A stretch of DNA of 38,859 nucleotides. Source: a virus. Its lineage: Duplodnaviria > Heunggongvirae > Uroviricota > Caudoviricetes. The notes under the pieces were generated by a model. The model searched no databases, was not told the DNA's origin, and saw only the letters and a program-made list of their open reading frames with translations. The position numbers and the translations under genes are program-made. The DNA lies in IMG/VR virus record IMGVR_UViG_2563366883_000017. The stretch is one strand, 5' to 3'. Shown here piece after piece: positions 32,417-32,441 of this stretch (positions within the stretch are counted from its first letter, which is position 1; each line of letters opens with the position of its first letter).

Positions 32417-32441
32417 AAACCCACTTCGCGGTGGGTTTTTT
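32417..32441 (+). terminator. Terminator-like hairpin between the GT reading frame and the tape-measure gene
   Basis: AAACCCAC-ttcgcg-GTGGGTTT followed by TTT; 21 nt upstream of ATG 32462. Confidence 0.4.

Follow-up and report, generated by a model that had tools for sequence, protein, structure and literature searches.

The window, by which we mean the whole stretch of 38,859 nucleotides that was analysed, is a defective Rac-type lambdoid prophage of Escherichia coli. Its gene content was assigned by Pfam and PHROGs. In the tail operon, a hairpin followed by a run of T marks the 3' end of an untranslated 165-nt gap, which extends from the stop codon of the G-T chaperone fusion at 32296 to the tape-measure ATG at 32462. 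The 176 nt at 32290–32465 match the ydaY-ynaA(tmpR) intergenic region of E. coli K-12 MG1655 at 100% identity, and 1046 of 5426 complete E. coli genomes each carried a single copy of this segment at 95% identity or more. The features of the late region are as follows.

17435–17977, + strand: Q-like late antiterminator (Pfam DUF1133, E = 2.5e-107; Phage_antitermQ, 26.1 bits against a cut-off of 26)
19022–19450 and 19601–19996: two ORFs with TolA-C domains (Pfam/PHROGs)
20191: holin
20463: lysozyme
21541–23016: trkG
25058 and 26124: terminase small and large subunits
27437: portal
28824–29939: head morphogenesis
29972–30808: scaffold
30814–31446: major head gene, truncated (matches only positions 2–164 of a 385-position PHROG profile)
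31527–31988, + strand: G-like tail assembly chaperone ydaY (PHROG 313 'tail assembly chaperone', E = 4e-46; annotated YdaY in relatives)
31973–32296, + strand: -1 frame 'T' extension, giving the G-T fusion (three-frame translation; PHROG 1189; weak Pfam Phage_TAC_18)
32297–32415, + strand: stub filling the cargo slot, probably non-coding (118–119 nt; GC 0.39 versus 0.45–0.49 in the flanks)
32416–32445, + strand: predicted Rho-independent terminator, stem (G)AAACCCAC/GTGGGTTT(T), loop TTCGCG, U-tract TTTTTTGTTG
32448–32464, + strand: tape-measure translation initiation region (Shine-Dalgarno [SD] AGGAG at 32448–32452, 9-nt spacer, ATG at 32462)
32462–35695, + strand: tape-measure protein (TMP) gene, 1077 aa (Pfam TMP_2, E = 1.4e-81; TMP_4; Tape_meas_lam_C)
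35688–36026: tail gene M
36026–36574: tail gene L, truncated (Pfam Phage_tail_L positions 1–148 of 206)
36585–37793, - strand: Mutator-family (IS256-like) transposase, which cuts gene L

The truncated major head gene is followed by the tail chaperone gene within about 80 nt (30814–31527), and the connector, tail-terminator and tail-tube genes, which are present in two intact relatives (L001 and L002), are missing from the window. Because the head gene is truncated, these three kinds of gene are deleted and gene L is cut by the transposase, the prophage was classed as defective. A tail-fibre assembly gene is located at 38275, beyond the transposase. The two TolA-C-domain ORFs occupy a typical moron position between the Q-like gene and the holin; that they interfere with Tol-dependent entry of phages or colicins would be a guess.

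The chaperone gene ends with ...ATA AAA AAG CCA TAG and contains a slippery heptamer, A_AAA_AAG, at 31973–31979, from which the -1 frame stays open until the TAG at 32294–32296. This arrangement suggests a -1 frameshift from G to G-T, as in lambda. The first-pass annotation had placed a terminator-like hairpin within the tail operon, immediately ahead of the tape-measure gene, and this held on every point of description: Pfam identifies the downstream gene, the arms, the TTCGCG loop and the short T-run read exactly as claimed, and 21 nt separate the last T of the run (32441) from the ATG (32462). Its placement of the hairpin at a chaperone/tape-measure junction needed amendment on the upstream side, where the adjoining gene is the -1 frame G-T extension and the site is a variable cargo slot.

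The stub between the G-T stop and the hairpin contains a single ORF of 29 codons (32328–32417), the stop codon of which overlaps the foot of the stem. Of 14 distinct natural variants, 6 had lost its ATG to mutation and one carried a TGG-to-TGA nonsense change. The ORF showed no Pfam match and no tblastn relatives among phages; when the origin of the stub was sought by distant-mode blastn, and by tblastn of the open frame, against phages, only the same locus was found. A promoter scan of 32200–32480 found no sigma-70-like promoter on the + strand, and an Rfam scan of 31900–32700 at a permissive threshold returned only noise (best E = 0.47, to the terminator end of sroH alone). Since the ORF start is lost or the frame interrupted in several variants, and promoter, homologues and Rfam matches were absent from these searches, the stub is probably non-coding. 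The combination expected of a small RNA gene, namely a promoter, a conserved structured RNA and a terminator, was not found. In one relative, L005 from E. coli ET734, an IS1 element (about 2289–3079) is inserted inside the stub at about window position 32385, leaving only the distal 81 nt with the hairpin beside the tape-measure gene.

Structure and predicted strength of the hairpin

The hairpin, GAAACCCAC-TTCG-CGGTGGGTTTT with its U-run, was read on the + strand at 32416–32441, and the full sequence of 32416–32445 is GAAACCCAC TTCG CGGTGGGTTTT TTGTTG. Its arms are AAACCCAC (32417–32424) and GTGGGTTT (32431–32438), separated by the loop TTCGCG (32425–32430); the T-run occupies 32436–32441 and is followed by GTTGTC. 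The stem has a 5-bp GC-rich core, CCCAC/GTGGG, and the terminator scan of the window scored the hairpin with 10 pairs and a 4-nt loop. Folding of 32410–32447 as RNA gave -13.3 kcal/mol (z = -2.63), with the hairpin as both the minimum-free-energy (MFE) and the centroid structure. It was kept as the MFE and centroid helix in a 181-nt fold of the whole gap, for which z was -1.7. The GC core alone contributes -7.5 kcal/mol, as against -12 to -13 kcal/mol when the A:U extension is included. With a stem of 8–10 pairs (-12.3 to -13.3 kcal/mol) and TTTTTTGTTG right after it, the element has the stem-loop and U-tract of a Rho-independent terminator. On the minus strand the same hairpin is followed only by TTTC (UUUC), so the element is unidirectional.

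Both strands of the 38.9-kb window were scored for terminators with a d'Aubenton-Carafa-type discriminant, d. The hairpin scored d = 17.4. Six sites in the window exceeded d = 10 (5459, 18065, 20123, 23100, 29960 and 32420), all on the + strand and none on the minus strand, whereas 20 dinucleotide-preserving shuffles gave 0.1 sites per strand at d > 10 and 0.05 at d of at least 17.4. The hairpin is thus stronger than expected by chance, intergenic (within the 165-nt gap) and co-oriented with the + strand operon. A loose pattern scan of the window found 16 sites against 14.7 expected, with no enrichment; the case for a terminator therefore rests on the quality of the site and not on the number of weak matches. 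By structure, the hairpin is a canonical Rho-independent terminator. Its sequence predicts that transcription would terminate at the U-tract, and the short 5-bp GC core points to an efficiency that is probably moderate.

The curated 3' ends from K-12 Term-seq and the SMRT-Cappable-seq tables contain no entry at 14264xx, a locus that is likely untranscribed in K-12. Because Rac is probably silent in that strain, missing entries are expected and are uninformative rather than negative. On the opposite strand, Adams et al. (2021) listed a region of Rho-dependent termination antisense to ynaA at about 1426769 (-) of NC_000913.3, which corresponds to about 32777 (-) in the window. Its position suggests that antisense transcription in K-12 crosses the first part of the tape-measure remnant in the direction of the hairpin.

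Four other strong + strand hairpins are located downstream of the Q-like gene: 18065–18077, 20123–20138 just before the holin, 23100–23130 after trkG, and 29960–29977 between the head-morphogenesis and scaffold genes. The first is a tR'-like terminator 88 nt downstream of the Q-like gene. These terminators are co-oriented with the late operon, and no terminator-like hairpin of comparable score was found on the minus strand of the window. By gene content, the region has the order of a Q-antiterminated late operon, with a Q-family gene, a terminator shortly after it, and holin, lysozyme, terminase and portal genes downstream. Late transcription of lambdoid phages, being Q-antiterminated, should largely ignore intrinsic terminators. 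Since the window prophage carries a Q-like gene, its late transcription would be expected largely to read through them.

The chaperone/tape-measure slot in related prophages

Relatives were collected from viral contigs, GTDB genomes and GenBank phages by anchoring on the chaperone and the N-terminus of the tape-measure protein; a scan of genome contigs returned 8 loci. In total, 263 loci with both genes were obtained from Escherichia, Citrobacter, Klebsiella, Erwinia and Pseudomonas. The interval from the chaperone stop to the tape-measure start comprised 137 distinct sequences of 358–2899 nt. Measured from the G-T stop, the gap was 38–39 nt in 'empty' Citrobacter slots, 163–165 nt in the type found in the window, and 485 to about 2500 nt in others. 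The gap between the chaperone and tape-measure genes in these relatives is a hypervariable cargo slot.

The cargo included an Ail/Lom porin, a DUF2545/zinc-ribbon membrane protein, a KilA-N protein and several proteins without a family; PADLOC found no defence families among nine cargo proteins. The last ORF pointed toward the tape-measure gene in 96 of the 103 slots longer than 600 nt. L085 is the single locus in which the only cargo gene is on the opposite strand, and its hairpin has decayed to -2.4 kcal/mol. A simple scan of two cargo-bearing relatives (L063 and L084) found no sigma-70-like + strand promoter for the cargo. The Ail/Lom outer-membrane gene (178–185 aa) occupies slots of about 750–800 nt in some E. 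coli prophages (L051, L060 and L062–L066). In lambda, lom is sited elsewhere, near the tail fibre genes. Two Citrobacter loci, L079 (3791–3816) and L091, carry a pair of slot terminators, one (d = 38.8) right after the G-T stop and one before the tape-measure gene; the pair flanks 1.7 kb of cargo consisting of a KilA-N gene and a membrane/zinc-ribbon gene.

The slot was compared with the hallmarks of a moron. Extra DNA (38 to about 2500 nt) is present between genes that are adjacent in related phages. The relatives do carry genes there, but the stub of the window contains no credible ORF that could be expressed from the prophage, and it showed no promoter of its own. A terminator and a deviant base composition (stub GC 0.39) are both present, with the reservation that the type of terminator tracks the TMP clade and not the cargo.

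When the 60 nt preceding the tape-measure start were compared, 69 of the 70 distinct sequences contained a GC hairpin with a T-run after it, the stem ending 19–28 nt before the ATG. The stems differed among clades: CCCAC/GTGGG in E. coli, CCCGC/GCGGG in Pseudomonas, AGCCGC/GCGGCT in Citrobacter and CCTCGC/GCGGGG in Klebsiella, the last with many different loops. Loci with Ail/Lom cargo had the stem GGCCCCGCTT/AAGCGGGGCT. RNAalifold of 22 representatives gave five consensus pairs, each with compensatory changes. One Klebsiella upstream sequence was common to slots of 1329, 1454, 1635 and 2374 nt, indicating that the terminator belongs to the tape-measure side and that cargo is inserted upstream of it. 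The type of hairpin followed the TMP/host clade rather than the cargo, and the 'empty' slots of Citrobacter and Erwinia still had a hairpin. The scores differed with load: d ranged from -21 to +9 in 'empty' slots versus mostly 20–47 in loaded ones.

Similarity between clades requires caution as a sign of common descent. The motif T7-ATGCCCGGAGA is identical in Pseudomonas Aurca01 and in prophages of Citrobacter, whose TMP N-termini share just 24–27% identity with those of Aurca01. More than 119 unrelated viral contigs contain the exact hairpin AAACCCACTTCGGTGGGTTTT, usually right before a TTGAC box, which indicates that such hairpins arise convergently and makes cross-clade similarity weak evidence for common descent. 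A stepwise series from CCCGC/GCGGG through CCCGC/GTGGG (with a G.U pair, in L188) to CCCAC/GTGGG had been considered as proof of homology and was downgraded, the same hairpin being present in those contigs.

Within E. coli, variable columns numbered 6 of 30 in the hairpin region versus 5 of 119 in the stub. The hairpin variants comprised a 2-nt loop indel, T-runs of 6–8, GGGT to GGGC and, in a few loci, GTGGG to GTGGT, which weakens the stem. As the hairpin is more polymorphic than the stub, purifying selection on the window copy is not strong.

Related hairpins were also seen in other contexts. In 'empty' Citrobacter slots (L076, 3785–3830; also L077, L078, L080, L081 and L086), the T-run forms the loop of a stronger alternative hairpin, CCGGGUAU-UUUU-AUGCCCGG (-19.5 kcal/mol, z = -3.6), which sequesters the bases immediately preceding the tape-measure SD; a direct repeat of the 5' arm, GCCCGG, stands before GGAG. 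On this folding model, the element could be a switch between termination and SD occlusion. The window type lacks this alternative hairpin. A near-identical hairpin, CC[C/G]GCCTTGAGC[G/C]GG, with one compensatory swap, was found in Aurca01 (L103, 2446–2475) and HK022 (L097, 721–750), where T7-ATG comes after it, just upstream of the genes for the major tail protein. Several junctions between late genes show the motif 'hairpin, T7, ATG(C/A)CCG' again.

Possible roles of the hairpin at the edge of the slot

With about even confidence, we favour the reading that the hairpin is an insulating terminator, which forms the fixed right edge of the cargo slot between G-T and the tape-measure gene and is read through in lytic growth. 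The nascent RNA would form the CCCAC/GUGGG hairpin, with A:U pairs lengthening the stem, immediately before the U-tract. In a lysogen, unmodified RNA polymerase arriving from the slot or from farther upstream would be released before the tape-measure SD, so that lysogen-expressed cargo could be transcribed without switching on the tape-measure and distal tail genes. In lytic growth, the Q-like antiterminator would modify the polymerase and permit read-through. Both the insulating role and the read-through by Q are what we infer from the following: the contrast between HK97 and HK022 (described below), the co-orientation of the cargo, the decayed hairpin of L085, the poor scores of empty slots, the Q-like gene with its tR'-like hairpin, the hypervariability of the slot, the above-chance strength of the hairpin, the shared orientation of the strong terminators with the late operon, and the recurrence of the exact hairpin as a generic terminator in unrelated contigs. 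With only a non-coding stub in place, the terminator of the window would have little to insulate and would partly be a retained backbone feature. Some observations argue against insulation. The slot of the window has neither cargo nor a + strand promoter, so there is nothing obvious to insulate, and the simple scan of two cargo-bearing relatives likewise gave no promoter. Within E. coli the hairpin varies more than the stub, and some variants weaken its stem. In addition, a hairpin that tracks the TMP/host clade and is present in empty slots fits a backbone function independent of cargo.

Such a function is the substance of a less probable but possible reading, in which the hairpin is a backbone attenuator or an mRNA-stability element. 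Partial termination in lytic growth, or a block to 3'-to-5' exonucleases on mRNA that has been read through, would keep the tube and chaperone proteins in excess over the tape-measure and tip proteins. The first-pass annotation had likewise suggested an attenuator that sets the ratio of chaperone to tape-measure expression, and this interpretation is only partly supported. The hairpin is terminator-like, and its conserved position across a wide phage family argues for function. However, folds of 38 and 181 nt, the Rfam scan and the unconserved small ORF revealed no mutually exclusive antiterminator helix, sensor domain or leader peptide, so nothing marks the hairpin as a regulated attenuator. 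The occurrence of the hairpin and T-run in nearly all upstream sequences from five genera, whatever the cargo, speaks for the attenuator/stabiliser reading, as do the T7-ATGCCCGGAGA identity between Aurca01 and Citrobacter and the Klebsiella stems, which are kept while their loops vary and the consensus pairs show compensatory changes. In relatives, terminator-like hairpins also follow the coat and tail-tube genes, at points where expression is expected to step down. Against it, the Q-like antiterminator should suppress termination in lytic growth, lambda and HK022 build tails without such an element, the hairpins of empty slots are the weakest terminators, and hairpins with a GC stem, UUCG loop and U-tract arise convergently, so that their similarity need not mean conservation. 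Given the Q-like antiterminator, we prefer an insulator that is read through in lytic growth to a tuned attenuator. The insulator and the attenuator/stabiliser are not mutually exclusive, and computation cannot separate them.

A broader form of the backbone idea, rather doubtful at present, would make 'hairpin, U-run, SD' an ancient selected element of this family of tail modules from Pseudomonas to Escherichia. It would act as a dosage signal through step-down or mRNA stability, with SD occlusion in some members, and also as the right-hand recombination linker for cargo.

It is unlikely that the hairpin is a functionless relic, left by a deleted cargo gene in a decaying prophage. The prophage is indeed defective at its major head gene, tail-tube region and gene L, its slot holds a low-GC stub without a gene, and stem-weakening variants circulate. 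Nevertheless, the same 163–165-nt gap with an intact hairpin is carried by about 1046 of 5426 complete E. coli genomes and also by phage records deposited as complete genomes, and most variants keep the core stem. Moreover, a relic would account for the present state of the window copy but not for the origin or role of the element. Very improbable is a terminator of a small gene in the gap, either the 29-codon ORF, which ends exactly at the stem much as the small gp15 ORF of HK97 is followed by a terminator, or a small RNA of roughly 100 nt, in view of the lost start codons, the nonsense variant, the lack of homologues, of a convincing SD or promoter and of a significant Rfam match, the modest fold of the gap (z = -1.7) and the silence of the K-12 transcript tables at the locus.

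As a by-product, the analysis is most useful for having defined a cargo slot of wide distribution whose right-hand boundary is fixed. Accessory genes, among them those for Ail/Lom porins and several uncharacterised membrane proteins, concentrate at the chaperone/tape-measure junction of Rac-type prophages, and roughly one in five complete E. coli genomes carries the Rac-type tail module. Because the terminator that bounds the slot keeps a fixed distance to the tape-measure start, it provides a simple sequence rule for finding prophage cargo in this family, and it extends the case of the HK97 gp15 'moron' to a far broader group. Should the terminator tune tape-measure dosage as well, it would join the few transcriptional controls of tail stoichiometry on record.

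Comparison with known phages

As an intrinsic terminator, the element resembles canonical E. coli and phage examples in its GC-rich stem, UUCG-type loop, upstream A-tract, six U residues followed by GUUG, and positive score with the classical discriminant. It differs from them in its short GC core and in its location within an operon and not at the end of one. The late region resembles Q-antiterminated lambdoid operons (lambda tR') in having a Q-like gene, a tR'-like hairpin and further co-oriented terminators, although the Q match of the window lies only just at the Pfam threshold. At the tape-measure junction, lambda has no cargo and no hairpin; the first-pass annotation was correct that it lacks the element, since T (10115–10549) overlaps H (10542 onward). 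A precedent exists in HK97, which has an annotated putative terminator at the same position, 13 nt before its tape-measure gene. The gene 15 moron and putative terminator of HK97 are reportedly treated in work by Juhala et al. from 2000 and Cumby et al. from 2012.

In HK97, the G-T stop at 8145 is followed by the gp15 moron (8203–8391), the putative terminator (8398–8422) and the start of H (8435), and gp15 has been placed between the tail chaperone and tape-measure genes (PMC3594210). HK022, a close relative of HK97, has no moron at this site, a 19-nt gap and no hairpin. Three differences separate HK97 from the window. HK97 carries a 62-aa gp15 gene for superinfection exclusion where the window has a 118-nt stub with neither gene nor promoter; the tail modules are not closely related, with TMP N-termini 23% identical; and throughout the Rac-type family the hairpin goes with the tape-measure side regardless of cargo, empty slots included. 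The order of elements is nevertheless alike in both: a G-T stop, extra DNA, a GC-rich hairpin with a T-run, about 12–20 nt, and the tape-measure ATG. A terminator at the edge of the slot is, by this precedent, an already known kind of element, and taken alone it is an ordinary intrinsic terminator.
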